This document shows positions 37,314 to 57,700 of a DNA stretch of 64,000 nucleotides, piece by piece. Under the pieces are notes generated by a model, which saw nothing but the letters and a program-made list of their open reading frames with translations, was not told where the DNA came from and did no database searches. Numbering within the stretch: the first letter of the stretch is position 1; each line of letters begins with the position of its first letter. The DNA is taken from contig OZ296652.1 in the NCBI GenBank assembly GCA_965655095.1, positions 57,784,001-57,848,000 of the forward strand, read 5' to 3'. The stretch is from Haplodiscus bocki (taxonomy: Eukaryota). The translations under genes were made by a program, and so were the position numbers.

Positions 37314-37319
37314 CACGTG
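37314..37319. other. 6-bp target-site duplication CACGTG (partner at 54765-54770)
   Basis: tct-CACGTG-AGTAGT ... ACTACT-CACGTG-gat. Six bp is the Polinton integrase TSD length. The hexamer is self-complementary, so it formally cannot be distinguished from a 6-bp extension of the inverted repeat. Confidence 0.8.
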
Positions 37320-37370
37320 AGTAGTTATATAAGTCGCATATGGGATACTCGCAGAGCGCACCCCCCTACC

Positions 37371-37765
37371 CTTCATCGTATTTGGGATATGCTCAACAGC
37401 GCACCCATACCCAGTATCGTATTTGAGATATGTTCAACAGCACACCCATACCCAGTATCGTATTTGGGATATGTTCAATAGCTCACCCATACCCAGTATC
37501 GTATTTGAGATATGTTCAACAGCGCACCCATACCCAGTATCGTATTTGGGATATGCTCAACAGCGCACCCATACCCAGTATCGTATTTGAGATATGTTCA
37601 ACAGCGCACCCATACCCAGTATCGTATTTGAGATATATTCAACAGCGCAACCATACCCAGTATCGTATTTGAGATATATTCAACAGCGCAACCATACCCA
37701 GTATCGTATTTGGGATATGTTCAACAGCACACCCATACCCATCATCTTATTTGGGATATGTTAAA
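37371..37765 (+). repeat. Left subterminal 41-bp minisatellite (~9.5 copies)
   Basis: Unit cagtatcgtatttg(g/a)gatatgttcaacagcgcacccatacc at 37371, 37412, 37453...37699, partial at 37740. Confidence 0.95.
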
Positions 37766-37806
37766 TGGACTTGCTCAGATTTTGTAATGAACTTCAAAAT
37801 AAAAAA

Positions 37807-40800
37807 TTAATTCCAAGGTATACTTTTAATATTATCTAAATAATTCCTTTTATCATCGAAAATACTCAAAGTCGTCTTTTTAATTCCTTGCATATACATA
37901 TCATGACTAATTGATTTTAAAATATAATTAACACATTCATTTTCTAATTCTTCAACATCTAAACAGATTTTATATTCCTCGAATTTAAAATTTTTTGATT
38001 GACTTTAAGATATACCTTTTAGTTTATTCTTATCTTCTTCCTTATCTTTACACTTAAAAGCATACATTTTACTTCTTAATGCTATGAATTCATCTATAAA
38101 TATATTTTTAGGTGTTTCTATTTTAAATTTTCCAAATACTTTTTTATTCTTTTCACTATATAACTCATGGTTTTCATCTATATTACTAAAATCAATTATA
38201 TCTTCTAAATTTTTCAAGTCTTTAATTATTTTTTCTGATTTTATACTCAATACAAAACTATCACAGTCTATATAATGTAATTGTAAATTTTCCTGACCAA
38301 AGTATGGTTGTAATGTATCATAATATGTTTCATACATATGTAATTTACTCAATTCTAATATAGCAAATCCTAAATATATAGGCTTATCCATTAATATTTC
38401 ATGTTCTTTTTCAAGATAACTATCACAATTACCAAAACTTTTACATATACCATTAAATGTTAATTTTCTTTGCCATCTTAAAAATTTTATTATAATTATC
38501 CCTTTTAATGATCTCTATTTTACATCTGTTCCTAAAATTTTCCGTAGTTTTACCGTAAAAAGCATTATTTAATAATTTATAGAAGTCTTTTTCAAAATCG
38601 TTTACTGCTTGATTTCTTTTTTGTGTAATAAAATCAATATATTTTTCTAACCATTTATTTTGTTTAAAGGATATTACTCTATGAACTTGTTTAATTTTCA
38701 TACCATGCCTAACATAAAATTTTAACATTCTATAATGAATTAAATAATTTCTCTTATCAGTCCAATCGCAAATTAATTTTTTATGAGATACATAATTTTT
38801 AGGCATCATTGATTTTATATATGGACCAAAATCATTTTTAGATATAGTTTTATTTTCAGGACAGAATGGAAAATACTTACTTTTTTGCCTTATACTATAA
38901 GGATATTCAAGATCGACTTCTAAAAAGTAACCAAAATCGTTATCATCTGGAGTATTTAATATTTCTTCTAAACAAACATTATCTGTTTCAAATTTAATAT
39001 TATCATAAGGTAAAAGTTGACTCATACCAAAACCATATAAATTATTAGCATCTACATATAATATATTTGTATTTTCATCTGATTTTACATACCTATCTCC
39101 CATAACACCAGATATACCACCTCTTATACCATTTTCTAATAATAAAATCATTTCTTTATCTTGTAGTGTTTGTAATTTGATATTTGTATATTTTAAACCA
39201 CAAGCCCAAGTATAACCAGGTAAGCTAACAAAATACAATGGACTTATTCCAAATTCATTTTGTGATACTTTTATAAATTTTTCAAAAACACATGCTAATA
39301 AAACATCACTTTTACAATATAATTCTGTTAATTCTTTACCATCTTTAATTTTGAATTTTTTAATAATTTCTCTTGTTCTATCAATTTCTTTATCATCGGG
39401 GCATTTATTTTTTAATTTACTAAAAAAATCTTTATTTTCTAAATTTTCTAAATTATTAACAGGTTTGTTATAATCTTCGATACTATTAAAATATTCATAA
39501 GGATATGCTAATTTTTTAGTTAAATACCTCCACTTATCAGGAAATTCTGTTTTTAATATTTTAAGGTCGTTTTCTCCTATATAATCTAAAAATGCTTCTT
39601 CTAATTCATTAATTTTATCAGGATATTTTTTCTTTAAATCACCAATAGATTTATTTCTTTTGGTTTTATCAATCATGTTTTCTAATTCATTAATGATATC
39701 TAATATTTTATCATCTCCAATAACTTCTTTTTTCAAGTTTTTAAGTGTTTTATGGCTGTTATCAACTAATGTTTTAACTAATTTACCTAAACTACTTGAT
39801 AAGAATCTATATGTATCTATAAACCTAATACATCCATATTTAACTGAAATATATTTTTCGTCTGTTTTAGGAATTATCTCAAATTTTACATTATCTTTTT
39901 TTCTATCAACTAATGTTTTAAAGAACATATGACAATCATAGTTACTAAAATTATGTAGACCAATTGTTATGAAATTACTATCTTTTTGCTTAACTTGTAA
40001 ATTACATTCATTATGAGCCGGTCCTCTATAATTACCTGTTAAATGACAATGATCCCTAACTTTATCTGTTTCAATATATTTTTCACAATATCGACAAATA
40101 TTATCATTTTCAAAGTCTTGTTTATTTTCTTCTGTCATAATGATATCTTTGTTAGTATTTTTAAACCAAAAGTTCATTTTATTTTTTTCTAATTTAATAA
40201 TTTCATCTACAAACCAATTAATATTTTCATAACCTAAAGGAGATTTATGATAATCACTTTTCAAAATATGATCTAAATCTGATACAATTTGTTATCCATT
40301 ACATACTGGTTCTTGTTTATAAATATTAGTTGTTTTGTCTCCAATATTAGTAATTTCTTTTTTATTATCAGCTTCAAAATCCGCATATATTCTAAAATAT
40401 AATTTATTCTTCTGAAAATATTTCTTCCAATATATATGTGAGTTAGGGGAAGTTTTTAATTGTTGATTTTCTTGACATAATTTTTTATGTTTAACTAACA
40501 TACTATTAGTTGTATATGAATTTAAGCACTTTCTACAGACATATTTACAATCATGTTTTCCTATAAAGACATTTGATTTTTTAATGAGAACATAATGATT
40601 TTTATAAATTAATAAATCAATGACTTTATCTGATTCATTTTTACTTATCTCAATAGGGATTAATTTATGTTTATTTTGATCGAAACCTAATTCATATATG
40701 TTTATTGATAAGTTGTTTAATTTCTCAAATCTATACATATCACTGCATTTGAAACCATTAGTAAAATCAAAACCTTCTATGTTTAATTCGTTAAAATATT

Positions 40801-41887
40801 TTCTATAACTTGATACTATATTAGAATTATTTTCACAAGGATGTAGTTTAGCTAAAATTGACCACAAGAAACAATATTTATCATCGTTTTTAATATTTAA
40901 TATAGCAGAAGATCTTAATGGTATTTCAATATAACTAGAACCATCCATATTACCAGTATTATAGAAAGATATTGTCATTGAATTAACTCTTTGAAAAACC
41001 CATCCTGATTCTCTCATCTCTAAACTTTGTTTCCTAGCTTCTAAATCCCATTGAATATTAACATTATCTATCTCAGATTGAGTTAAATTAGTAATCATAC
41101 TTGAATTGATAGACATTTCTGCTTCCCTTCTAATATCACCATCTTCTTCAAATTTATAAAATAATAACATAAAGGATAATTGATATTTAAACTTATACTG
41201 TTTTATAAATTTAGCATATATATGACTCATTTCTTCAAATATCTTGTCAATATAATACACTTCTATTCCAGTATTATCAAATTTTGATGTAATTGTTAAT
41301 TGTAAATTCAAATCTTTCTTATGGTGTCTATCTACAGAAATATCATATATTTTATTTAATATATCATCTGAAAATTTATATTTGATTTTGTTATTTTTTT
41401 AAATATTTTTGTTCTTATTTTCATCTTTATTAATTTTTGTTCTAGGTTTAGGTTGAATTTGCTTTTTTTCTAAATGTCTTTTTGATTTTATATGCCTACT
41501 ATAACTGGCTCTATGAATATTTATTCCACAATCTTCACATCTTTTAATATTATTTTGTGCCATATTTTCTACATCTGTTTTAATTTTCTCTATTCTTAAT
41601 AATATATTATCTTTCAAGCTTTTAAATTCTACTATTCTATTATTTAACATAATTGTATCATTTTTATAGTGACTAATATCATTTCGTATCTCAGATATTC
41701 TCAAGGAAAGATCATTATATTTTTTATTTTTCTTTTTTCTATTACGAATAGCTCTCTTAATGGTTTTAATTTCTTTATACAATTCAATAATTTTGTCTTC
41801 CTTTGATTTTATATTTTTATTTACTTTCTTAATATCTCCATCCATCTTTACTTTTTGATCTAAAAGTTTATTTAATATCTGACTCAT
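37807..41887 (-). pseudogene. polB: Protein-primed family-B DNA polymerase (pPolB), left-arm copy; ancestral ORF ~1,350 aa
   Basis: ORFs 41399-41887, 40292-41311 and 38453-40264 are in frame across TAA stops. There is a frameshift near 38485 and a stop at 38005. Motifs: ExoI ADFEA, endonuclease-VII-like CRYC...DHCHLTGNYRGPAHNECN, ExoII HNFSNYD, ExoIII YCKSDV, Pol A YVDANNLYG, Pol B KLLNNAFYGK, Pol C YIDCDS. Confidence 0.92.
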
Positions 41888-41957
41888 TTATAATATATAA
41901 ATTTATTCAATTAATTTAATGTGGATAAAAGAATTCAATAATTTCATGTTTAAATAA

Positions 41958-42257
41958 ATGAATGAACAAAACCAAATAATTAAAAATTGTCGTGTTTGTG
42001 GTTATGAAAGAGAGTATGATAACTATCACAGATTATATGTTGCTTGTAAAAAATGCTCTAGTAAACGATGTGCAAAATATTATCAGAAAAACAGAGAAAA
42101 ATTATTAGAAAAATCTAGACTTTATCGAGAAAACAATAAAGATAAACTTAAACGGAATAGAAAAACTATTGATACACACACAGAAGATATACAGAATCTT
42201 TACAATCAGGCTAATATGTTAACAGAGATGATAAAAACAACAGTTTCAGTATCTTAA
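41958..42257 (+). CDS. 99-aa CxxC..CxxC zinc-ribbon protein with basic helical tail
   Basis: CRVC...CKKCSSKRCAKYYQKNREKLLEKSRLYRENNK. Intact here; the mirror copy has a nonsense change. Confidence 0.7.
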   Translation: MNEQNQIIKNCRVCGYEREYDNYHRLYVACKKCSSKRCAKYYQKNREKLLEKSRLYRENNKDKLKRNRKTIDTHTEDIQNLYNQANMLTEMIKTTVSVS

Positions 42258-42313
42258 TTAAATACATATATTTATACTCATATTCAAATATAAGAGAACA
42301 ATTGTATTTGTAA

Positions 42314-42859
42314 TTATGTATATAATTTATAACAAAAGTATCTAGTAACAGGATTAGTATTTTTACATTTTTGTATTCGATTTAAATCTAGACAATTATA
42401 TTCACATGCTAAATGTTTAAAATTATCAAAATTTTTATCTATCTGTTGTAAAATTTTAGTAGCTATCATAGGTTTTGGTATATGTTTTTTATAAAATATT
42501 GGATGAAAATCTTTAATAGAGTTATATGTAGTTATAGTTAATATATTGATTTTATGAAAATTATAACCATTATATTCTAATTCTTTTATTTTTCTATGAT
42601 TTTTAACTTGGGGAGGTAAATATATACTAAAATTATTTTCCCAAATTTTATTATTTTTTTCATTTTTAAAAGATATTTCATATTCACATTCAGCTGTGTA
42701 ACGAATAAATTTTTCTTGATGTTTTAACAAAATTGTTCTGATTAATTTCTCAGGATACATAGCTCTAATATTATAGAAAGAACCATTTAAGGTAATATTT
42801 TGTAAACTTTCAGGTTCGTTTCTCTGATAAGGTCTTTCATATTCAACTTCTAAACTCAT
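42314..42859 (-). CDS. 181-aa hypothetical element protein
   Basis: Open ORF in very AT-rich DNA starting at ataaATG; mirrored at 48990-49535. Confidence 0.7.
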   Translation of the reverse strand: MSLEVEYERPYQRNEPESLQNITLNGSFYNIRAMYPEKLIRTILLKHQEKFIRYTAECEYEISFKNEKNNKIWENNFSIYLPPQVKNHRKIKELEYNGYNFHKINILTITTYNSIKDFHPIFYKKHIPKPMIATKILQQIDKNFDNFKHLACEYNCLDLNRIQKCKNTNPVTRYFCYKLYT

Positions 42860-42911
42860 TTATATATTTCATATTTGTTTTCAATATTGAAATAAGTTTT
42901 CTATTTTTCAA

Positions 42912-43619
42912 ATGACTACTATAATGAAACAAGTAACATGTTCACTATGTAATATAAAAATCGATGAATTAGAATGGATGTATCATATATTTTCGGAAAA
43001 TCATTTACAACTTTGTGAAAACGATAAAGAAAAAGTTGCAATAAAGTTTTTCGAAATGATTTTTGATACATATTCCAAGCAAAGTGAAATATATAATTTG
43101 AAAATTAAAAAGACACTTGATTTAAGGCAATCATATTTTGCAACAAAACTACCAAAAGAGAAATTTAATCTATTATGTAGTGAATCAACTTATAAATCAG
43201 AATTAGAAGACAGTCTCACTCAAGATTTACTGAATTTCACACAGAATGCTATACACGATATTGGAAAATCATACTTCAAATCACTGGATAAGATAACATA
43301 TTGTAAACTTTGTAGTATCGAAATAAATAAATCACTTCTTTTTGATCATATTATTTCAAAAGAACACAGAGACATTGAAGATTATTTTATAATGAAATGT
43401 ATGACTTATTGTGAACGTTGTGATAAAGAAATAAAAAACGATGAATGGAGAGAGCATATATGTTCAGAAAAACATTTAGTAAAGACTAATAGTTTTGACA
43501 AATATTGTGAAGTTTGTAAAATAAGTTATTCTATTCATATGGATAACGAAGCTCACAAACACATAGAAACTGATTTTCATAAGAGAAACCTATTTAGATC
43601 ACGTTATATTTTTAAATAG
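42912..43619 (+). CDS. 235-aa protein with four U1/matrin-like C2H2 zinc fingers
   Basis: CSLC..HIFSENH, CKLC..HIISKEH, CERC..HICSEKH, CEVC..HIETDFH; intact in both arms. Confidence 0.8.
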   Translation: MTTIMKQVTCSLCNIKIDELEWMYHIFSENHLQLCENDKEKVAIKFFEMIFDTYSKQSEIYNLKIKKTLDLRQSYFATKLPKEKFNLLCSESTYKSELEDSLTQDLLNFTQNAIHDIGKSYFKSLDKITYCKLCSIEINKSLLFDHIISKEHRDIEDYFIMKCMTYCERCDKEIKNDEWREHICSEKHLVKTNSFDKYCEVCKISYSIHMDNEAHKHIETDFHKRNLFRSRYIFK

Positions 43620-43674
43620 ATTTTTATAGTTGTTAAATCAGAAAAATTATAATTATAATTACTTTTGCATATAA

Positions 43675-44133
43675 ATGAATAAAAGATTTTCATATGATAA
43701 TATGATTAAATCACGATCGATAGAACCATCTGACATAATTAGGACATTTAAACTAGATCGATGTTGTGATTTTATGGAAGAAAAATACAATATTCCTAGA
43801 TTAACTCAAAAAGAAATTTGTAATCGATTACAATTTACTGATAGAACTATTAGACGATACAGAGATGATATTAAAATGGATAGTCCTTATAGAATAAATA
43901 ATAACAAAAAGAAAAAGCCTAAACAACCATCAGATACTAAAACAGTTCCAAATAAGAGATCTAAAAACAATGTTATAAAAGTTGGTAATATTTCTGATAC
44001 TCACACAATATCTGGTAGAGAATTAATTGATCAAGCTTTTCAGAATGATAGAACAAACGCTATTTTAGAAAACAAACCAGAAGAAAATAAAAAGCTTATT
44101 ACTATAGCTAGAAGAATCATCGATAACAAATAA
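43675..44133 (+). CDS. 152-aa helix-turn-helix DNA-binding protein
   Basis: LTQKEICNRLQFTDRTIRRYRDDI is an HTH pattern, followed by a basic KKKKPK NLS-like stretch; intact in both arms. Confidence 0.75.
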   Translation: MNKRFSYDNMIKSRSIEPSDIIRTFKLDRCCDFMEEKYNIPRLTQKEICNRLQFTDRTIRRYRDDIKMDSPYRINNNKKKKPKQPSDTKTVPNKRSKNNVIKVGNISDTHTISGRELIDQAFQNDRTNAILENKPEENKKLITIARRIIDNK

Positions 44134-44161
44134 AGAACATATATGAGTTTCTTATTATTAA

Positions 44162-44557
44162 ATGGATGAAATAGAACAAGCGATAAGACAGGACGAAGAT
44201 ACAGTGATAGATGTTGCTGAAAAATTAAAACTTGTATCAAATACTAATATGGTTACAAAAGAAGAACTTTTACAGAAATTTATAGCTGAAAATGTTATAA
44301 AAAACAAAATGATTAATATTGCTGGTCAAATGTTTATAGAATATGAAAAAGAAATAGATAATTCTAATCAAATAATCAAAGGTTACGAAGATTATATCGG
44401 AGATGATAAAATCAGAAAGGATATATTAGACAAAGTCTGTTCAGATGATATAAAAGAAGATTGTTCTGATAAAGATGAAGTTTACAAAAATAATTCTATT
44501 AATAGATTTATTAAAATTTTAAATAATAATAAACCAGAAATGCTATCAAACAAATAA
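44162..44557 (+). CDS. 131-aa acidic/helical hypothetical element protein
   Basis: Open ORF starting at ttaaATG; mirrored intact at 47301-47693. Confidence 0.7.
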   Translation: MDEIEQAIRQDEDTVIDVAEKLKLVSNTNMVTKEELLQKFIAENVIKNKMINIAGQMFIEYEKEIDNSNQIIKGYEDYIGDDKIRKDILDKVCSDDIKEDCSDKDEVYKNNSINRFIKILNNNKPEMLSNK

Positions 44558-44734
44558 TGTTGAAATAATTATCAATAAAATTTTATCAACTTTTTTATGA
44601 ACGAGATATAAATTTTTATAGTATTCTAATTGGTATATTCCTTCGTTTGCAATTTCATTAACTATTTCTGTTTTCATGTATCTATTCTTATAATGTGTTT
44701 TACTATCTTTGATTTTTTCAACAATTTAAATAAT

Positions 44735-45301
44735 ATGTCGAAGTACTGCAATAGATGTAAAAGAGATTTAGAGATTGATAATTTCTATTCTTATAAGAAA
44801 AGTATTTGCAAACAATGCGTAAATAAAAAAGTTAAATGTGATTATTGTAACAAGGAATTTAATAGTACTAATTTATCCAAACACATAAAACAAATGCATA
44901 GTACCTACAATAGTACTTACAATAGTACTCACAATAGTACTTACAATAGTACTTACAATAGTACTTACAACAGTACTTACGACGATAGTACTTTTAATAA
45001 GACAGACAAAAATATTATTGTAGATGAAAATAACGATCCTTTATATCCAACAATAGAAGATGGTCTATATCTTAATAAATATAACGAATTAAAGAAAGAC
45101 AAAATATATGATATAAAAACTCGGAATCAAATAAATAGAATTCTTACTAAAAATAGAATATTACATAATAAAATAATGAATAAAATAATAACAACGAGAG
45201 AAGAAATACAATGCGAGAATAATTTAAACAAACTAAAAGATTTAGATTATTTCGATGAAAGAGTTTGTAAAATACTTTTAAAATACAAGTATCTTGATTA
45301 A
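44735..45301 (+). CDS. 188-aa zinc-finger protein with (STYN)n repeat
   Basis: Likely start MSKYCNRC (ATG 44735, rather than TTG 44630). CNRC..CKQC..CDYC..HIKQMH zinc motifs, then seven STY/H units encoded by a 12-bp tandem repeat. Confidence 0.72.
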   Translation: MSKYCNRCKRDLEIDNFYSYKKSICKQCVNKKVKCDYCNKEFNSTNLSKHIKQMHSTYNSTYNSTHNSTYNSTYNSTYNSTYDDSTFNKTDKNIIVDENNDPLYPTIEDGLYLNKYNELKKDKIYDIKTRNQINRILTKNRILHNKIMNKIITTREEIQCENNLNKLKDLDYFDERVCKILLKYKYLD

Positions 45302-45369
45302 ATTTGTGTCTCATATATACTTGTATAAGAGTATGATTTTTCTATTGTACTCGTATATATGTACTTATA

Positions 45370-46066
45370 TTTGATCGAACAAGATATTTGTATAAAGTAT
45401 TTTGATCGAACAAGATTTTTGTATAAAGTATTTTGATCGAACAAGATATTTCTATTGTACTCATATATATGTAATTATATTTAGTATATATACTTGTATA
45501 AGAGTATGATATTTGTATAAAGTATTTAATCGATCAAGATTTATGTATAAAGTATTTGATCGAACAAGATATTTGTATAAAGTATTTTGATCGAACAAGA
45601 TGTTACTATTTTACTCATATATATGTAAGTGTATTTAGTATATATACTTGTATAAGAGTACGATATTTGTATAAAGTATTTGATCGAACAAGATTTTTGT
45701 ATAAAGTATTTGATCGAACAAGATTTATGTATAAAGTATTTTGATCGAACAAGATTTATGTATAAAGTATTTTGATCGAACAAGATATTACTATTATACT
45801 CATTTATATGTAATTATATTTAGTATATATACTTGTATAAGAGTACGATATTTGTATAAAGTATTTGATCGAACAAGATTTATGTATAAAGTATTTGATC
45901 GAACAAGATATTTCTATAAAGTATTTTGATCGAACAAGATTTATGTATAAAGTATTTTGATCGAACAAGATTTATGTATAAAGTATTTTGATCGAACAAG
46001 ATTATGTTAAAAGTAATATGATCGAACAAGATTATGTAAAAAATATTATGATCGAACAAGATTATT
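45370..46066 (+). repeat. Left-arm central 30/31-bp repeat array (~17 gatcgaacaag cores) with interspersed AT-rich higher-order inserts
   Basis: Unit gtataaagtatt(t)tgatcgaacaagat(a/t)t(t/a)t, interrupted three times by an 'actcatatatatgtaa...tatatacttgtataagagta' block. Confidence 0.92.
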
Positions 46067-46346
46067 CCAAAACAGATAATTATAATTAAAATTACATAAA
46101 TTGTTACATGAGCTCAAATTTCCGACACTGCGCCGACACAGAATAAACGAATAATTGTATATACTTTTTTTGCATTATAACACTTATATAATTTCACGGT
46201 GTGCGCCGACACAGAATAAACGAATAATTGTATATATTTTTTTTGTATTATAACACTTATATAATTTCATGGTGTCCGCCCATGTCCGAAATATAAGCTC
46301 ATGTAACAATTTATGTAATTTTAATTATAATTATCTGTTTTGGAAT
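46064..46346. other. Palindrome axis: perfect inverted repeat to 46114/46296, imperfect to ~46127/46283, enclosing 2 x 73-bp direct repeats
   Basis: attccaaaacagataattataattaaaattacataaattgttacatgagct ... agctcatgtaacaatttatgtaattttaattataattatctgttttggaat. Spacer units tgcgccgacacagaataaacg...atttcacggtg start at 46129 and 46202, with a third partial (tccgcc) at 46275. Confidence 0.9.
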
Positions 46347-46487
46347 AATCTTGTTCGATCATAATACTTTTAACATAATCTTGTTCGATCATAATACTTT
46401 TAACATAATCTTGTTCGATCAAAATACTTTATACATAAATCTTGTTCGATCAAATACTTTATACAAATATCTTGTTCGATCAAATAT
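46345..46487 (-). repeat. Right-arm central 30/31-bp repeat array (5 cores)
   Basis: cttgttcgatc at ~46350, 46380, 46410, 46441, 46471. Confidence 0.9.
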
Positions 46488-46552
46488 AAGTACATATATA
46501 CGAGTACAATAGAAAAATCATACTCTTATACAAGTATATATGAGACACAAAT

Positions 46553-47119
46553 TTAATCAAGATACTTGTATTTTAAAAGTATTTTACAAACTCTTTCATC
46601 GAAATAATCTAAATCTTTTAGTTTGTTTAAATTATTCTCGTATTGTATTTCTTCTCTCGTTGTTATTATTTTATTCATTATTTTATTATGTAATATTCTA
46701 TTTTTAGTAAGAATTCTATTTATTTGATTCCGAGTTTTTATATCATATATTTTATCTTTCTTTAATTCGTTATATTTATTAAGATATAGACCATCTTCTA
46801 TTGTTGGATATAAAGGATTGTTATTTTCATCTACAATATTATTTTTGTCGGTCTTATTAAAAGTACTATCGTCGTAAGTACTGTTGTAAGTACTATTGTA
46901 AGTACTATTGTAAGTACTATTGTGAGTACTATTGTAAGTACTATTGTAAGTACTATGCATTTGTTTTATGTGTTTGGATAAATTAGTACTATTAAATTCC
47001 TTGTTACAATAATCACATTTAACTTTTTTATTTACGCATTGTTTGCAAATACTTTTCTTATAAGAATAGAAATTATCAATCTCTAAATCTCTTTTACATC
47101 TATTGCAGTACTTCAACAT
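46553..47119 (-). CDS. 188-aa ZnF/(STYN)n protein, right-arm copy
   Basis: Mirror of 44735-45301, few substitutions, intact. Confidence 0.72.
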   Translation of the reverse strand: MLKYCNRCKRDLEIDNFYSYKKSICKQCVNKKVKCDYCNKEFNSTNLSKHIKQMHSTYNSTYNSTHNSTYNSTYNSTYNSTYDDSTFNKTDKNNIVDENNNPLYPTIEDGLYLNKYNELKKDKIYDIKTRNQINRILTKNRILHNKIMNKIITTREEIQYENNLNKLKDLDYFDERVCKILLKYKYLD

Positions 47120-47300
47120 ATTATTTAAATTGTTGAAAAAATCAAAGATAGTAAAACACATTATAAGAATAGATAAATGAAAACAGAAATAGTTAATAAA
47201 ATTGCAAACGAAGGAATATACCAATTAGAATACTATAAAAATTTATATCTCGTTCATAAAAAAATTAATAAAATTTTATTGATAATTAATTCAACATTAT

Positions 47301-47693
47301 TTATTTGTTTGATAGCATTTCTCGTTTATTATTTAAAATTTTAATAAATCTATTAATAGAATTATTTTTATAAACTTCATCTTTATCAGAACAATCTTCT
47401 TTTATATCATCTGAACAGACTTTGTCTAATATATCCTTTCTGATTTTATCATCTCCGATATAATCTTCGTAACCTTCGATTATTTGATTAGAATTATCTA
47501 TTTCTTTTTCATATTCTATAAACATTTGACCAGCAACATTAATCATTTTGTTTTTTATAACATCTTTAGCTATAAATTTCTGTAAAGGTTCTTCTTTTGT
47601 AACCATATTAGTATTTGATACAAGTTTTAATTTTTCAGCAACATCTATCAGTGTATCTTCGTCCTGTCTTATCGCTTGTTCTATTTTATCCAT
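47301..47693 (-). CDS. 130-aa hypothetical protein, right-arm copy
   Basis: Mirror of 44162-44557. Confidence 0.7.
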   Translation of the reverse strand: MDKIEQAIRQDEDTLIDVAEKLKLVSNTNMVTKEEPLQKFIAKDVIKNKMINVAGQMFIEYEKEIDNSNQIIEGYEDYIGDDKIRKDILDKVCSDDIKEDCSDKDEVYKNNSINRFIKILNNKREMLSNK

Positions 47694-47718
47694 TTAATAA
47701 TAAACTCATATATGTTCT

Positions 47719-48174
47719 TTATTTGTTATCGATCATTCTTCTAGCTATAGTAATAAGCTTTTTATTATCTTCTGGTTTGTTTTCTAAAATAGCGTTTGTT
47801 CTATCATTCTGAAAAGCTTGATCAATTAATTCTCTACCAGATATTGTGTGAGTATCAGAAATATTACCACCTTTTATAACATTGTTTTTAGATCTCTTAT
47901 TTGGAACTGTTTTAGTATCTGATGGTTGTTTAGGCTTTTTTTTGTTATTATTTATTCTATAAGGACTATCCATTTTAATATCATCTCTGTATCGTCTAAC
48001 AGTTCTATCAGTAAATTGTAATCGATTACAAATTTCCTTTTGAGTTAATCTAGGATAATTGTATTTTTCTTCCATAAAATCACAACATCGATCTAGTTTA
48101 AATGTCCTAATTATGTCAGATGGTTCTATCGATCGTGATTGAATCATACTATCATAAGAAAATCTTTTATTCAT
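47719..48174 (-). CDS. 151-aa HTH protein, right-arm copy
   Basis: Mirror of 43675-44133. Confidence 0.75.
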   Translation of the reverse strand: MNKRFSYDSMIQSRSIEPSDIIRTFKLDRCCDFMEEKYNYPRLTQKEICNRLQFTDRTVRRYRDDIKMDSPYRINNNKKKPKQPSDTKTVPNKRSKNNVIKGGNISDTHTISGRELIDQAFQNDRTNAILENKPEDNKKLITIARRMIDNK

Positions 48175-48229
48175 TTATATACAAAAGTACTTATAATTAT
48201 AAATTTTCTGATTTAACAACTATAAAAAT

Positions 48230-48937
48230 CTATTTAAAAATATAACGTGATCTAAATAGGTTTCTCTTATGAAAATCAGTTTCTATGTGTTTGTGAGCTT
48301 TGTTATCCATATGAATAGAATAACTTATTTTACAAACTTCACAATATTTGTCAAAACTATTAGTCTTTACTAAGTGTTTTTCTGAACATATATGCTCCCT
48401 CCATTCATCGTTTTTTATTTCTTTATCACAACGTTCACAATAAGTCATACATTTCATTATAAAATAATCTTCAATGTCTCTGTGTTCTTTTGAAATAATA
48501 TAATCAAAAAGAAGTGATTTATTTATTTCGATACTACAAAGTTTACAATATGTTATCTTATCCAGTGATTTGAAGTATGAATTTCCAATATCGTGTATAG
48601 CATTCTGTGTGAAATTCAGTAAATCTTGAGTGAGACTGTCTTCTAATTCTGATTTATAAGTTGATTCACTACAAAACATATTAAATTTCTCTTTTGGTAG
48701 TTTTGTTGCAAAATATGATTGCCAGAAATCAAGTGTCTTTTTAATTTTCAAATTATATATTTGACTTTGCTTGGAATATGTATCAAAAATCATTTCGAAA
48801 AACTTTATTGCAACTTTTTCTTTATCGTTTTCACAAAGTTGTAAATGATTTTCCGAAAGTATATGATACATCCATTCTAATTCATCCATTTTTATATTAC
48901 ATAGTGAACATGTTACTTGTTTCATTATAGTAGTCAT
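48230..48937 (-). CDS. 235-aa multi-C2H2 zinc-finger protein, right-arm copy
   Basis: Mirror of 42912-43619 (~10 aa differences). Confidence 0.8.
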   Translation of the reverse strand: MTTIMKQVTCSLCNIKMDELEWMYHILSENHLQLCENDKEKVAIKFFEMIFDTYSKQSQIYNLKIKKTLDFWQSYFATKLPKEKFNMFCSESTYKSELEDSLTQDLLNFTQNAIHDIGNSYFKSLDKITYCKLCSIEINKSLLFDYIISKEHRDIEDYFIMKCMTYCERCDKEIKNDEWREHICSEKHLVKTNSFDKYCEVCKISYSIHMDNKAHKHIETDFHKRNLFRSRYIFK

Positions 48938-48989
48938 TTGAAAAATAGAAAACTTATTTCAATATTGAAAACAAATATGAAATATATAA

Positions 48990-49535
48990 ATGAGTTTAGA
49001 AGTTGAATATGAAAGACCTTATCAGAGAAACGAACCTGAAAGTTTACAAAATATTACCTTAAATGGTTCTTTCTATAATATTAGAGCTATGTATCCTGAG
49101 AAATTAATCAGAACAATTTTGTTAAAACATCAAGAAAAATTTATTCGTTACACAGCTGAATGTGAATATGAAATATCTTTTAAAAATGAAAAAAATAATA
49201 AAATTTGGTAAAACAATTTTAGTATATATTTACCTCCCCAAGTTAAAAATCATAGAAAAATAAAAGAATTAGAATATATTGGTTATAAATTTCATAAAAT
49301 CATTATATTAACTATAACTACATATAACTCTATTAAAGATTTTCATCCAATATTTTATAAAAAACATATACCAAAACCTATGATAGCTACTAAAATATTA
49401 CAACAGATAGATAAAAATTTTGATAATTTTAAACATTTAGCATGTGAATATAATTGTCTAGATTTAAATCGAATACAAAAATGTAAAAATACTAATCCTG
49501 TTACTAGATACTTATGTTATAAATTATATACATAA
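48990..49535 (+). pseudogene. 181-aa hypothetical protein, right-arm copy with premature TAA at 49209-49211
   Basis: GAA in the left arm is TAA here; the rest is collinear. Confidence 0.8.
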
Positions 49536-49591
49536 TTACAAATACATTTGTTCTCTTATATTTGAATATGAGTATAAATATATGTATATAA

Positions 49592-49891
49592 TTAAGATAC
49601 TGAAACTGTTGTTTTTATCATCTCTGTTAACATATTAACCTGATTGTAAAGATTCTGTATATCTTCTGTGTGTTTATCAATAGTTTTTCTATTCCGTTTA
49701 AGTTTATCTTTATTGTTTTCTCAATAAAGTCTAGATTTTTCTAATAATTTTTCTCTGTTTTTCTGATAATATTTTGCACATCGTATACTAGAGCATTTTT
49801 TACAAGCAACATATAATCTGTGATAGTTATCATACTCTCTTTCATAACCACAAACACGACAAATTTTAATTATTTGGTTTTGTTCATTCAT
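49592..49891 (-). pseudogene. 99-aa zinc-ribbon protein, right-arm copy with premature stop
   Basis: CTT TAT CGA in the left arm reads CTT TAT TGA here. Confidence 0.8.
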
Positions 49892-49961
49892 TTATTTAAA
49901 CATGAAATTATTGAATTCTTTTATCCGCATTAAATTAATTGAATAAATTTATATATTATAA

Positions 49962-52900
49962 ATGAGTCAGATATTAAATAAACTTTTAGATCAAAAAGTA
50001 AAGATGGATGGAGATATTAAGAAAGTAAATAAAAATATAAAATCAAACGAAGACAAAAATATTGAATTGTATAAAGAAATTAAAACCATTAAGAGAGCTA
50101 TTCGTAATAGAAAAAAGAAAAATAAAAAATATAATGATCTTTCCTTGAGAATATCTGAGATACGAAATGATATTAGTCACTATAAAAATGATACAATTAT
50201 GTTAAATAATAGAATAGTAGAATTTAAAAGCTTGAAAGATAATATATTATTAAGAATAGAGAAAATTAAAACATATGTAGAAAATATGGCACAAAATAAT
50301 ATGAAAAGATGTGAAGATTGTGGAATAAATATTCATAGAGCTAGTTATAGTAGGCATTTAAAATCAAAAAGACATTTAGAAAAAAAGCAAATTAAACCTA
50401 AACCTAAAAAAAATTAATAAAGATGAAAATAAAAACAAAAATATTAAAAAAAAATAACAAAATCAAATATAAATTTTCAGATGATATATTAAATAAAATA
50501 TATGATATTTCTGTAGATAGACACCATAAGAAAGATTTGAATTCACAAATAACAATTACATAAAAATTTGATAATACTGGAATAGAAATGTATTATATTG
50601 ACAAGATATTTAAAGAAATGAGTCATATATATGCTAAATTTATAAAACAGTATAAGTTTAAATATCAATTATCCTTTATGTTATTATTTTATAAATTTGA
50701 AGAAGATGGTGATATTAGAAGGGAAGCAGAAATGTCTACCAATTTAAGTATGATTACTAATTTAACTCAATCTGAGATAGATAATGTTAATATTCAATGG
50801 GATTTAGAAGCTAGGAAACAAAATTTAGAGATGAGAGAATCAGGATGGGTTTTTCAAAGAGTTAATTCAATGACAATATCTTTCTATAATACTGGTAATA
50901 TGGATGGTTCTAGTTATATTAAAATACCATTAAGATCTTCTGCTATATTAAATATTAAAAACGATGATAAATATTGTTTCTTGTGGTCAATTTTAGCTAA
51001 ACTACATCCTTCTGAAAATAATTCTAATATAGTATCAAGTTATAGAAAATATTTTAACGAATTAAACATAGAAGGTTTTGATTTTACTAATGGTTTCAAA
51101 TGCAGTGATATGTATAGATTTGAGAAATTAAACAACTTATCAATAAACATATATGAATTAGGTTTCGATCAAAATAAACATAAATTAATCCCTATTGAGA
51201 TAAGTAAAAATGAATCAGATAAAGTCATTGATTTATTAATTTATAAAAATCATTATGTTCTCATTAAAAAATCAAATGTCTTTATAGGAAAACATGATTG
51301 TAAATATGTCAGTAGAAAGTGCTTAAATTCATATACAACTAATAGTATGTTAGTTAAACATAAAAAATTATGTCAAGAAAATCAACAATTAAAAACTTCT
51401 CCTAACTCACATATATATTGGAAGAAATATTTTCAGAAGAATAAATTAAATTTTAGAATACATGCGGATTTTGAAGCTGATAATAAAAAAGAAAATACTA
51501 ATATTGGAGACAAAACAACTAATATTTTTAAACAAGAACCAGTATGTAATGGATAACAAATTGTATCAGATTTAGATCATATTTTAAAAAGTGATTATCA
51601 TAAATCTCCTTTAGGTTATGAAAATATTAATTGGTTTGTAGATGAAATTATTAAATTAGAAAATAAAATGAACTTTTGGTTTAAAAATACTAACAAAGAT
51701 ATCATTATGACAGAAGAAAATAAACAAGACTTTGAAAATGATAATATTTGTCGATATTGTGAAAAATATATTGAAACAGATAAAGTTAGGGATCATTGTC
51801 ATTTAACAGGTAATTATAGAGGACCGGCTCATAATGAATGTAATTTACAAGTTAAGCAAAAAGATAGTAATTTCATAACAATTGGTCTACATAATTTTAG
51901 TAACTATGATTGTCATATGTTCTTTAAAACATTAGTTGATAGAAAAAAAGATAATGTAAAATTTGAGATAATTCCTAAAACAGACGAAAAATATATTTCA
52001 GTTAAATATGGATGTATTAGGTTTATAGATACATATAGATTCTTATCAAGTAGTTTAGGTAAATTAGTTAAAACATTAGTTGATAACAGCCATAAAACAC
52101 TTAAAAACTTGAAAAAAGAAGTTATTGGAGATGATAAAATATTAGATATCATTAATGAATTAGAAAACATGATTGATAAAACCAAAAGAAAAAAATCTAT
52201 TAGTGATTTAAAGAAAAAATATCCTGATAAAATTAATGAATTAGAAGAAGCATTTTTAGATTATATAGGAGAAAACGACCTTAAAATATTAAAAACAGAA
52301 TTTCCTGATAAGTGGAGGTATTTAAATAAAAAATTAGCATATCCTTATGAATAGTTTAATAGTATCGAAGATTATAACAAACCTGTTAATAATTTAGAAA
52401 ATAAAGATTTCTTTAGTAAATTAAAAAATAAATGCCCCGATGATAAAAAAATTGATAGAACAAGAGAAATTATTAAAAAATTCAATATTAAAGATGGTAA
52501 AGAATTAACAGAATTATATTGTAAAAATGATGTTTTATTATTAGCATGTGTTTTTGAAAAAATTATAAAAGTATCAAAAAATGAATTTGGAATAAGTCCA
52601 TTGTATTTTGTTAGCTTACCTGGTTATACTTGGGCTTGTGGTTTAAAATATACAAATATCAAATTACAAACACTACAAGATAAAGAAATGATTTTATTAA
52701 TAGAAAATGGTATAAGAGGTGGTATATCTGGTGTTATGGGAGATAGGTATGTAAAATCAGATGAAAATACAAATATATTATATGTAGATGCTAATAATTC
52801 ATATGGTTTTGGTATGAGTCAACCTTTACCTTATGATAATATTAAATTTGAAACAGATAATGTTTGTTTAGAAGAAATTTTAAATACTCCAGATGATAAC

Positions 52901-54031
52901 GATATTGGTTACTTTTTAGAAGTCGATCTTGAATATCCTTATAGTATAAGGCAAAAAACTACGTATTTTCCATTCTGTCCTGAAAATAAAACTAAATCTA
53001 AAAATGATTTTGGTCCATATATAAAATCAATAATGCCTAAAAATTATGTATCTCAGAAAAAATTAATTTGTGATTGGACTGATAAGAGAAATTATTTAAT
53101 TCATTATAGAATGTTAAAATTTTATGTTAGGCATGGTATGAAAATTAAACAAGTTCATAGAGTAATATCCTTTAAACAAAATAAATGGTTAGAAAAATAT
53201 ATTGATTTTAATACACAAAAAAGAAATCAAGCAGTAAACGATTTTGAAAAAGACTTCTAAAAATTATTAAATAATGCTTTTTACGGTAAAACTATGGAAA
53301 ATGTTAGGAACAGATGTAAAATAGAGATCATTAAAAGGGATAATTATAATAAAATTTTAAGATGGCAAAGAAAATTAACATTAAATGGTAAATGTAAAAG
53401 TTTTGGTAATTGTGATAGTTATATTGAAAAAGAACATGAAATATTAATGGATAAGCCTATATATTTAGGATTTGCTATATTAGAATTGAGTAAATTACAA
53501 ATGTATGAAACATATTATGATACATTACAACCATACTTTGGTCAGGAAAATTTACAATTACATTATATAGAGTGTGATAGTTTTGTATTAAGTATAAAAT
53601 CAGAAAAAATAATTAAAGACTTGAAAAATTTAGAAGATATATTTGATTTGAGTAATATAGATGAAAACCATGAGTTATAGAGTGAAAAGAATAAAAAAGT
53701 ATCAGGAAAATTTAAAATAGAAACACCTAAAAAAATATTTATAGATGAATTCATAGCATTAAGAAGTAAAATGTATGCTTTTAAGTGTAAAGATAAGGAA
53801 GAAGATAAGAAAAAACTAAAAGGTATATCTAAAAGTCAATCAAAAAATATTAAATTCGAGGAATATAAAATATGTTTAGATGGTGAAGAATTAGAAAATG
53901 AATGTGTTAATTATATTTTAAAATCAATTAATCATGATATGTATATGCAAGGAAGTAAAAAGACGACTTTGAGTATTTTCGATGATAAAAGTAATTATTT
54001 AGATAATATTAAAAGTATACCTTGGAATTAA
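49962..54031 (+). pseudogene. polB: pPolB, right-arm copy
   Basis: Mirror of 37807-41887. A-run indels near 50410/50450, stops at ~50560, 51554, 52352, 53258, 53678. Motif A YVDANNSYG, motif C YIECDS. Confidence 0.92.
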
Positions 54032-54072
54032 TTTTTTATTTTGAAGTTCATTACAAAATCTGAGCAAGTCCA

Positions 54073-54713
54073 TTTAACATATCCCAAATAAGATGATGGG
54101 TATGGGTGTGCTGTTGAACATATCCCAAATACGATACTGGGTATGGTTGCGCTGTTGAATATATCTCAAATACGATATTGGGTATGGTTGCGCTGTTGAA
54201 TATATCTCAAATACGATACTGGGTATGGGTGCGCTGTTGAACATATCTCAAATACGATACTGGGTATGGGTGCGCTGTTGAGCATATCCCAAATACGATA
54301 CTGGGTATGGGTGCGCTGTTGAACATATCTCAAATACGATACTGGGTATGGGTGAGCTATTGAACATATCCCAAATACGATACTGGGTATGGGTGCGCTG
54401 TTGAACATATCTCAAATACGATACTGGGTATGGGTGCGCTGTTGAGCATATCCCAAATACGATACTGGGTATGGGTGCGCTGTTGAACATATCTCAAATA
54501 CGATACTGGGTATGGGTGAGCTATTGAACATATCCCAAATACGATACTGGGTATGGGTGCGCTGTTGAACATATCTCAAATACGATACTGGGTATGGGTG
54601 AGCTATTGAACATATCCCAAATACGATACTGGGTATGGGTGCGCTGTTGAACATATCTCAAATACGATACTGGGTATGGGTGCGCTGTTGAGCATATCCC
54701 AAATACGATGAAG
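54073..54713 (-). repeat. Right subterminal 41-bp minisatellite (~15.5 copies)
   Basis: Reverse complement of the left array, about 246 bp (6 units) longer, with alternating g/a variants giving an 82-bp dimer. Confidence 0.95.
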
Positions 54714-57700
54714 GGTAGGGGGGTGCGCTCTGCGCCTATCCCATATGCGACTTATATAACTACTCACGTGGATAGTACGAAAAAGACCTTGTGGTTCCTC
54801 CAGATTTTCTCTGACTCGCGCTCTGAAGGAAACACTAGATGACTACAACCCAACCAAACGACTTCGAGAAAAACATCTGAATACTGACGCAAGTACAAAA
54901 AATCTGAATTTCAGAAGACAAGTGAAAAAAATGTCACACAAGAGAATCCAAATCCTCGAGAAATGTCTTTTTCCAGACTTTCCATTGTGTGAAAGTTTTG
55001 AAATGAGCCCTAGATGACTTCAATCAGAATATTAGTCTGAGAAAAACAACTTAAAAGAGAGAGGCGAGGCTTAACTTCCAAACACAGTCGGACTTGTCAG
55101 TTGAAATCAAAGATAAGGTTCACCGAGTAAGTTCTGAGAGACATATGCACTTTGACCGCACACAAGATTGAGAAATTGAAAGCTTGTATAAAAAGGAGAT
55201 GTCTGGTCGATCACAGATTCCTCACCCCAGTTTTCGAATGAGTGCTTGAAAACTGCAATCCAACCGGTAACCCTCCAAAAAAAATTGAGAACTCGAATTT
55301 TGTTTTTTTTTTGTTTCAGACTGGAAGTCGAAATTCTCGTCCAGGTGACCACAGATAACCCATTTTCTACAGGTTCTTCTTTCCGTTGTGGACTATGAAA
55401 CAGCGCTATATAACTGCAACCAAACGAGTTGTTTTGGAGAAAAAATTGAAAACAGAACGAAGTAAAGCCGATTTGAAAGTAACAAGTCAAAACATTTCGG
55501 TGTAAAGAATAAAGCTCAAGAAAGGGGACAAGCTTGTTTTGTCAAGATCAATTGATATTGCGCGGGTTTTAGCCAGCACTGGACGGCCATAATCCATCTT
55601 TAGAAAATCAACCTTGGAAAAGTCTCGAAAATTTCAAGCTTCAAAGAAAATCAAACTACAAGTCCGCACTGTCGAATAAACAATTTAATTCGCCCAGGGT
55701 GGAGCCAATATCTTGGCTTGGGAATGCAATGGACACCTCACGTAAAGCTGAGAAAATGTGGATTCGAACGGAGGTGAAATGGACTTCGAGTTTTAGACTG
55801 GAATGTTCCATGAGCCACAGATTGAGAGTGACTCTACGGCACATTTACCTGTCCTCGCGAGAGAGTATCTGCTCCTTTGTATGTGTTGCTGGATATTTCC
55901 AGAGAAACTCTGAGAGAAAACAGCCTGTTCCAGCAGTTTTTTTGGGGGATTTCCAAAGCTATGGCGCGCACACTCCCTCTGAGGTAGTGTCATTCATACA
56001 ATCAGGCGTTTCTGTTTTCAGACTTTTTCATAGGTAAAAGTGACGGCTCTATTGTTGGTGCCATGCTTTACACACCACTGAGCGGACACACTCGCAGACA
56101 AAAGGAAACATAGGACGTTCTATGACCATCACATGCACAGAAGAGTAACCGATTTCGAGTTGCCATTGTGTCGTAACGAGAAGTTCCAACATTATCTAAC
56201 GGACACGCTGTTGAATATTGTTTTGCATAAAACTGTAGTAAACTTTTTTTTAAAAAAAGAGCCATAGATATCACCAGTGGGAAACGATTGCGCTGCTGAA
56301 AAACCGAGAAGAATGTTTCATAAAGCTGAATGTGAGGAAATCGTGATGGCGTTGGACGTCCTGCTGTAGAGGCAATCGGCCTTGTCACTGACGTGTTGGC
56401 CAGAGTAGACATACTGCAGATAAAACGAGGCTGACATGTCTTCTGGACGCACTCTCATACTTGCCATTGGCGACACCAATCAACTGACTGCACAGGTTTC
56501 TTCCGGAGTTCAACATTACTCTTAACTTCCAAAAAGCAATTGAATTATTTGACACAATGGTCGCCCACTTGGACAGACACCCTCAGACGAAATGTCACAG
56601 AAGCCTGTTTCAGAAAACGAAATTGATTTTAGAGTCCCTGCTCTTTCTGGCAAAAGTCGATTAAGATTAAAGCCCGACTGGAGTTACTATCAAGACTCAA
56701 GAACACTGGAGAAACTCTGCAAAAGGGAAGTGGAGAGTGGGGCTGTCCATGTATTCCGGTGGCAAATCGTGTCTTCAGGTGTTCCAACGATGACTTTTGA
56801 GTCTGAGGACGAAATGTGCCAAAATCATCCATCGACAAAGTCGCCAGTTAACAACGATGGAGTCAACTTCTTTGACAGAAAATGCAAAGAGCCTCGCAAG
56901 GTGGTAGTCCAAAAAAGTGCAAGCTCAGACCGAAGGTCAACATAAAAGAAGTCACAGGGGCAGGTGTGCATTCTAGCTGAAAAGACGCATCGTGACGGTG
57001 GGTCGTTATTTCATTATGTTGCTCCCTCCGTGGACTCTCGTCTCTGCTGGACGATAAACTACTTACTGAAGGAATGTTCAGGCAGTGGCGCAAGAAACTC
57101 ATGTCGAAACACACAATATACTCGGTTTCATTGAGAACAACATCGTTACGCACAAGACAGGACTATTTACAAATTCCGTTGCTTCAACGCGCCACAAATT
57201 GATGGGTAACACATTTGCGAAAAATGCGCAGCAAGTATCAATTACAGAAGAGAGATATAATTGTGGATTGCATCTCAGGCATACCTCAAGGTCAGAAGAA
57301 TCAACGAATTGGACAAGGTGTATTTCGTTCGAGACAAATAAGTAAACTTTTAGAGATATTGTTTTTCCAGTAGCATTGAAAGATAAAGTCGCAATCGGTG
57401 TTTGCGGTTACCGTATATTTCTTCTACAGGGCTGAAACAAAAGAAGCCATACGTACCATTATGACCACCACGCGCCGACAACTGCAGGCTGAAAATCGTT
57501 TAGGCTGCTCTAACGAATGGGATTAGCAGCGGAAGCGAGAGTACCACGTCCCTCAAGCTGCCAAAATGTTTGTTTATCTGATAGTTAGCTCGAATAGAAT
57601 CAACTTTGACACCAGCTACGCTGGGGCAACAGAACAGAACTTGTTGGAGCAACGTCGGACAAACAACTCTGGAGCTCTGGATGACGTCTCTAACTAGATC

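Follow-up and report, generated by a model that had tools for sequence, protein, structure and literature searches.

The window analysed here is a stretch of 64,000 nucleotides of Haplodiscus bocki DNA (GenBank assembly GCA_965655095.1, contig OZ296652.1, positions 57,784,001 to 57,848,000 of the forward strand). Between positions 37320 and 54764 it contains an AT-rich inverted repeat, a Polinton-like element that is palindromic over its whole length. Self-BLAST of the window matched 37355-45447 with 54481-46408 in inverted orientation at 97.8% identity over 8.1 kb, as a preliminary description of this DNA had proposed. The GC content was about 22% inside the element and about 40% outside, and the window was free of any N. 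Both termini started with AGTAGTT, and CACGTG lay directly outside each of them. From the terminus inward, each arm carried a 41-bp array, an outward-read gene for a protein-primed DNA polymerase B (pPolB), six small genes and a 30-bp array, in the order described earlier. Five of the six small genes are oriented towards the core. The features are collected in Table 1.

The two arms met at an asymmetric core of 181 bp, in which perfect symmetry was lost after 46114 and came back at 46296. Palindromic arms meeting at a small spacer had been described before, and the core agrees with this. However, the arms were not identical. They differed by 134 substitutions over 7,558 alignment columns, with 556 bp of extra array sequence in the left arm and 246 bp in the right, and the polymerase gene was disrupted in both. 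The CACGTG flanks were also present as described, but this hexamer is its own reverse complement, so that the window alone gives no proof of a target duplication. That proof was supplied by the 6-bp duplications of other copies. The left terminus is presumed to be both a polymerase origin and an integrase site.

Table 1. Positions of the element's features in the window
Feature	Position	Strand	Remarks
Left 6-bp target-site duplication, CACGTG	37314..37319	+	differs in each of 18 copies
Left terminus, AGTAGTT...GCAT[AT]TG	37320..37374	+	agrees in register with a canonical Polinton end at 15-16 of the first 23 bases
Subterminal 41-bp array, 9.5 units	37375..37762		
Protein-primed DNA polymerase B gene (pPolB2 type), left copy, stops and frameshift	37808..41887	-	relatives have one frame of ~1,356 aa
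99-aa zinc-finger-like gene	41958..42257	+	below Pfam cut-offs
181-aa gene, weak nuclease-like lead	42314..42859	-	Atlas score 0.91, PvuRts1I/DUF559-like, few common features; lead only
235-aa zinc-finger gene	42912..43619	+	missing from some copies
Helix-turn-helix gene	43675..44133	+	homologue with 41% identity in one of the genome's canonical Polintons
131-aa gene, family marker	44162..44557	+	no known family
202-aa C2H2/C2HC zinc-finger gene with 12-bp repeat	44693..45301	+	
Left 30-bp array block, 17.9 units, with ~40-bp motif	45367..46063		motif also in canonical Polintons
Perfect stem, left side	46064..46114		ends at CATGAGCT
Asymmetric core (axis)	46115..46295		imperfect inverted repeat around two 73-bp units (46129-46280)
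Right perfect stem and short 30-bp array, 4.7 units	46296..46486		
Mirrored small genes	46553..49211		202, 130, 151 and 235 aa (-); truncated 181-aa gene (+)
Polymerase gene, right copy, broken	49962..54031	+	stop near codon 532 common to left copy
Subterminal 41-bp array, 15.5 units	54076..54709		
Right terminus	54710..54764	-	
Right 6-bp target-site duplication, CACGTG	54765..54770	+	

The palindromic copies, their ends and their core

The 1.5-Gb assembly was queried by search and not by a whole-genome census. The axis search returned 387 candidates, the best 40 of which were scored; the 30 loci fetched represented 24 distinct places, and 19 of these had long inverted arms. A degenerate terminal pattern matched 90 genome sites and no control site, and 36 of the 90 formed 18 inward-facing pairs, 8-29 kb apart. 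Every one of the 18 end-pairs was bounded by a 6-bp target duplication. All of these were different, 16 were perfect and two had one mismatch, and none of the 14 end-pairs checked for a longer match reached 7 bp. A matching duplication at both outer ends indicates that the palindrome was inserted as one unit. The interior was palindromic in 11 of the 18 end-pairs, with the core near the midpoint in seven, arms running up to an N run in one, and mirrored marker genes in three. A search with the 131-aa marker gene yielded 1,504 first-look candidates, a figure that does not measure copy number; the best 150 contained 33 convergent pairs and no divergent or same-strand pair. The plan was kept in a sub-lineage with different cargo genes, in which 28 of 39 places were paired (counted by eye). 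The preliminary description had asked whether other copies share the palindromic plan and the axis, with different duplications; across the family they do. There is almost no doubt that the palindromic plan belongs to the family and that its members were inserted as units, and we infer a family size of some hundreds of elements.

The centre of these copies was also fixed. The 26-base motif at the core boundary occurred at 114 genome sites (control 0), and 72 of the 100 listed core-motif sites faced a partner. The core spacings of 104-111, 172-181, 216-250 and 340-423 bp corresponded to one or more core units. We compared 22 cores from 27 loci; one was a rearranged unit, which left 21 two-armed cores. 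In these, lineage-specific changes were mirrored on both sides right up to CATGAGCT. The symmetry broke directly after the GAGCT of this boundary in 18 cores; in the remaining three the boundary lay 8 bases further inward, with the right side as the source of the copied bases in two of them and the left side in the other. Inside the core, the two sides formed a conserved imperfect inverted repeat and were not equalised. The fixed boundary in these sequences suggests a defined priming or cutting point. Six of eight one-unit cores folded better than shuffled sequences, with z values of -2 to -6.6 on at least one strand. The core being single, asymmetric and fixed, we rejected a head-to-head union of two monomers as a source of the palindrome. 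Repeated fold-back was considered for 'double-core' loci and rejected, as these consisted of identical copies flanking a 200-N gap.

The palindrome appears to be unstable in the chromosome and to be lost occasionally by deletion across the centre. One locus, L096, was considered as a mobile variant with short repeats and rejected, its junction being found once among 40 scored places. Near 35.08 Mb of C3 (L004, L005 and L007), a tandem of three units adjoined a normal axis; each unit measured about 3.2 kb and consisted of a core and one arm stub. Outside the family, short palindromes of about 400 bp (L113, 10482-10889) and about 220 bp (L103, 2507-2724) were seen in loci with a related polymerase on metagenome contigs. 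No long palindrome was found in 39 IMG/VR and metagenome loci of this kind, which were mostly short contigs with a longest inverted match of about 400 bp, and the core motif had no match in viral contigs. A sister pPolB2 family of the same genome showed no inverted pair among 30 scored places, and the single copy opened was canonical.

Genes of the family and of the canonical Polintons

The polymerase of the relatives was a single frame of about 1,356 amino acids (aa) that matched PF03175 and carried an endonuclease-VII-like insert. This insert agrees with the HNH-bearing pPolB2 enzymes described in an excerpt of 10.1101/2023.08.22.554363. The family polymerases formed a clade of their own with a support of 100 (FastTree), placed among pPolB2 families of the canonical type. 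The gene had no internal stop in 12 of the 34 genome places scored. A structure model of the first 700 residues, made from a natural polymerase copy (mean pLDDT 68, pTM 0.32), matched adintovirus and adenovirus polymerases. The N-terminus of the model matched the Y-family little-finger fold weakly (E about 0.02, none below 0.001), a fold that serves to identify the terminal-protein domain (PMC11161782, in excerpt). An invariant Cys and His, C339 and H431, may mark a vOTU protease. The 131-aa marker protein had no usable match in the Atlas, and the PDB sequence search returned zinc-finger matches only. Two side observations concern the polymerase gene. Some related Polinton polymerases contained inteins (P0080 and P0097; genome matches, for example, at C1:1252163-1256845), with a LAGLIDADG endonuclease in P0080, and one arm of a long copy (L093, 1-2332) had an internal duplication in the gene, with a frame of 2,085 aa.

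Genes for an integrase, major capsid protein, ATPase or protease-like protein were found inside none of the family loci among the 24 sequences searched, with natural genes of canonical copies as queries and the minor capsid protein not among them. The query that we take to be a protease was named from a motif and had no Pfam match. No resolvase or packaging gene was found. The preliminary description had allowed that other members might be ordinary Polintons, with integrase or capsid genes following the axis; no such gene followed it. The sole integrase match, in L035, lay outside the terminus of that copy. A capsid gene beside the same copy was rejected as a family gene, since the copy sits within the capsid gene of a canonical Polinton (L035, 8760-9500).

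Canonical, non-palindromic Polintons were very abundant in this genome, with 17,824 capsid and 16,834 integrase first-look candidates. We opened two of them, one for each polymerase type, and both carried integrase and capsid genes. The readable end of one and the family ends had 15-16 of their first 23 bases in common, AGTAGT and GCAT[AT]TG being in register. Polinton-type integrases make a 6-bp duplication (PMC4196379, in excerpt). The family is probably integrated in trans by a canonical Polinton integrase, a point that the preliminary description had not raised. A motif of about 40 bp, at about 45465-45507 of the window and at 4249-4291 of L061 (88% identity), was very deep in read contigs and may act in both as a promoter or packaging signal. 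In L064 (1691-2183), inverted AGTAGT ends enclose about 490 bp at one end of a canonical Polinton, possibly a miniature non-autonomous element.

Elsewhere in the window, about 12 tandem copies of a unit of about 1.7 kb occupied positions 1-20681, with neighbouring copies up to 97% alike; these units matched neither Rfam nor the element, and the Rfam search of the window found nothing. A 619-aa frame on the minus strand (27073-28932), whose weak C-terminal F-actin-binding match was below the Pfam cut-off, is probably a host exon.

Equality of the arms and the proposed mechanism

With a 350-bp probe, both arms were matched in 14 of 23 loci (28 arms). The median identity was 98.2% between the arms of one copy versus 89.8% between copies, and for 25 of the 28 arms the nearest relative was the partner arm. 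The ratio of nonsynonymous to synonymous substitution rates (dN/dS) of the polymerase was 0.22-0.25 between copies and 1.35, 1.02 and 1.07 between arms. The polymerase is under purifying selection between copies and decays neutrally between arms. The family is for this reason not merely defective, as the earlier alternative of a self-complementary defective genome would have it. Over long alignments the arms differed by 0.3-2.6%, and the target duplications at 2 of 108 bases (1.9%, confidence interval 0.2-6.5%). The divergence along the window arms showed no gradient towards the axis (Kolmogorov-Smirnov p 0.21). In all three copies tested, polymerase breaks were common to both arms. In the window this was the stop near codon 532, in a second copy, which had a perfect duplication, a frameshift near codon 789, and in a third, whose ends were not readable, five frameshifts and three stops. 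The closeness of partner arms, the neutral decay between them and the common breaks point to an equalisation of the arms before insertion as the most likely history. The breaks found in both arms also imply that copies with a dead polymerase were probably replicated by a borrowed enzyme, with the lesions of one arm written into both. The mutations of the window arms (37780-54060) were strand-biased, with T>A in excess of A>T on the top strand of either arm and the reverse in two other copies. We rejected this bias as the mark of a single-stranded stage, because its direction goes with the chromosome strand and differs between two copies with a common core orientation.

These observations are best accommodated by a Polinton-derived satellite, equalised by fold-back and integrated in trans, and we regard this as the likely explanation. 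Such a family would have originated from a pPolB2-type Polinton that lost its integrase, capsid and packaging genes and kept the polymerase and a few DNA-binding genes, with terminal inverted repeats extended over the whole genome except the core (about 105 bp, or multiples of the inner unit). Outside the chromosome, the family polymerase would protein-prime at the AGTAGT end and displace one strand. Being self-complementary, the displaced strand would fold on itself, with the core forming the loop of a duplex as long as one arm, and synthesis round this loop would restore the palindromic duplex, whose two ends are then identical. While the strand is folded back, one arm would overwrite the other up to the fixed point beside the core, through priming by the 3' end in the stem or through repair. 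A canonical Polinton, similar in its ends, would then supply the integrase that inserts the duplex, and copies with a dead polymerase would use the enzyme of intact copies.

Several observations weigh against this explanation. Two of the eight one-unit cores did not fold better than shuffled sequences, nor did any of the three two-unit cores; the window core gave z values of 0.6 and -0.8, and one sub-lineage lacked significant folding in its one-unit cores. The endonuclease-VII-like insert was present in sister families too and is no special adaptation of the palindromic family. Three of the 18 end-pairs lacked an axis, which we read as later lopsided deletions, the uniqueness of the junction having been tested for one, and the interior of four of the 18 was left out of the count. 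Among the matches listed, no partner was present for 84 of the 150 scored marker matches or for 28 of 100 core sites; these unpaired sites may include members of another plan, or of one with an integrase. The arms of three copies were 4.9-9.8% apart, measured only beside the repeat-rich axis. For the third copy with common breaks, the unreadable ends mean that conversion in the chromosome is possible. No free form of the element was observed; the four read sets consisted of contigs, which do not reveal free ends, and came from one study with no more than two samples, perhaps those behind the assembly itself.

A less likely explanation is that the half-length hairpin is the true genome. It would be a lasting duplex of 8.7 kb, closed at one end and bearing a terminal protein at the other, perhaps carried in helper capsids, and the palindromic duplex would be its replication and integration form only. 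The conserved, fixed and imperfectly paired core with its sharp boundary, the stepwise duplication of the loop unit and the breaks common to both arms are consistent with it; hybrid-ended bacterial plasmids exist (PMC13417996, in excerpt), and AAV (adeno-associated virus) packages snap-back genomes (PMC8235507, in excerpt). Against this, no resolvase or packaging gene was found, core folding was not significant in every sub-lineage, and integrated sequence cannot tell a lasting hairpin from a passing one. The fold-back, protein-primed replicon of the preliminary description is therefore retained in part: a fold-back strand is a natural intermediate and the arms were apparently equal before insertion, but a persistent or packaged 8.7-kb closed hairpin is not established by the integrated sequence. 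Equally tentative is the broader idea of a class of eukaryotic satellite replicons, in which the genome would be a hairpin the length of one arm, with a single terminal-protein end and its own polymerase. It would undergo cutting or priming at a constant position next to the loop and depend on Polinton helpers for packaging and integration, as a selected lineage of some hundreds of copies, each datable by its arm divergence like long terminal repeat (LTR) elements.

The arms of sex-chromosome palindromes are kept alike by gene conversion, and conversion in the chromosome could likewise have kept the arms of old palindromic insertions similar, with no need of fold-back at mobilisation. Conversion is also compatible with the breaks in both arms, most of all in the copy whose ends were unreadable. 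However, the target duplications had diverged no more than the arms (1.9% versus 0.3-2.6%, in a small sample biased to well-kept ends) and far less than the copies differ from one another (about 10%), no gradient ran along the arm, and the fixed core would be left unexplained, so that we consider conversion unlikely. A separate fold-back or breakage-fusion event at each locus, within ordinary Polintons, would account for rearranged loci such as the tandem core-bearing units of L004, L005 and L007. It is contradicted by the matched duplications in 18 of 18 end-pairs, which imply insertion as a unit, and by the same turning point on many chromosomes; no ordinary element with the family core was found, and such an origin is highly improbable. 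An assembly artefact from fold-back chimeric reads is just as hard to credit. The assembly does break at some centres, with an N run at the centre of L093 and the core present twice around the 200-N gap in L094 and L095, and many small contigs carry a single arm. Yet the window is gap-free and its arms differ by substitutions and indels, the same duplication stands at both ends in different flanks, the contigs on each side of the gap in L094 and L095 both cross the core, and one short-read contig, possibly of the same sample, joins the core to the right arm without mismatch.

Polinton replication has so far been inferred and not observed. If the fold-back satellite explanation holds, an intermediate folded over the whole genome would offer a distinctive target molecule, namely arm-length, fast-renaturing, protein-linked DNA. 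Arm divergence would give each copy a built-in clock. The family would also point to a helper-satellite relation among Polintons, with integration in trans of a 17-kb element. Many near-perfect palindromes of 13-20 kb in one germ line form a natural record of palindrome decay, and they break assemblies. The search pipeline in the excerpted part of 10.1101/2023.08.22.554363 demands five core genes and short repeats; pipelines of this kind would miss palindromic families, which may therefore exist elsewhere.

Comparison with known systems

The family resembles Polintons/Mavericks (pPolB2; adintoviruses) in its pPolB with an HNH/endonuclease-VII-like insert, its AGTAGT ends, its 6-bp duplication and its length of 13-20 kb. 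Among the features that define Polintons, it has the pPolB, a target duplication within the range of 5-8 bp (usually 6 bp) and AGTAGT as a short terminal tandem repeat. No integrase of its own and no capsid, ATPase or protease gene was found in it, and its repeats are not of the kind that spans 100-1,500 bp round a unique middle. Known Polintons carry integrase, protease, ATPase and capsid genes between repeats of that length (10.1101/2023.08.22.554363, in excerpt). In contrast, the repeat of the family spans about 8.7 kb round the 181-bp core in the window, with no unique middle and all genes doubled. As three defining features are absent (integrase, virion genes and short repeats), we class the family as a Polinton-derived satellite and not as a Polinton. 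In the racket model of Polinton replication, as outlined in a portion of PMC4196379 that cites the original model, the ends of the displaced strand pair with each other, and the polymerase of the element copies this strand before integration. In the family, the handle would be the whole genome and the loop about 105-420 bp, so that the racket becomes a hairpin.

The snap-back genomes of AAV and self-complementary AAV (scAAV) are self-complementary, have one kind of terminus, replicate as head-to-head dimers and need helper functions (PMC8235507, in excerpt). The family is similar to them in its way of working, and its strand is likewise self-complementary, with the same terminus at both ends. 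The AAV forms, however, arise afresh with variable turning points and depend on Rep nicking, whereas the family has a fixed turning point, a conserved polymerase of its own, diverged sub-lineages and germ-line insertions. An undescribed hybrid linear replicon had also been proposed for the element. The palindromic family is apparently undescribed, but hybrid replicons with a hairpin and a terminal protein have been described in bacteria: the pELF-like linear plasmids of Enterococcus have one hairpin end and one terminal-protein end (PMC13417996, in excerpt). They are bacterial, larger than 100 kb and non-integrating, and match only the proposed half-length form, by description. No palindromic Polinton family was found in the literature searched, which did not extend to Repbase, most subscription papers, the original Polinton, phi29 and hairpin-plasmid papers or supplements, and the term 'palindrom' was absent from PMC6431247 and PMC8502044, both in excerpt.

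The family can also be set beside two further kinds of system, the first of which works in a similar way. Protein-primed polymerases propagate inverted duplications of one end through hairpin intermediates, as in yeast pGKL1, phi29 and adenovirus mini-chromosomes; Kikuchi in 1985 reportedly described a yeast pGKL1 hairpin plasmid, and Esteban in 1997 is said to have obtained phi29 palindromes in vitro. To our knowledge, these derivatives are short-lived laboratory products that neither integrate nor form a selected lineage. Foldback transposons and miniature inverted-repeat transposable elements (MITEs) have long, internally repetitive inverted arms that are mobilised in trans and are non-coding. 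The arms of the family, in contrast, are coding, with seven genes, one of which specifies a polymerase that evolves under purifying selection.

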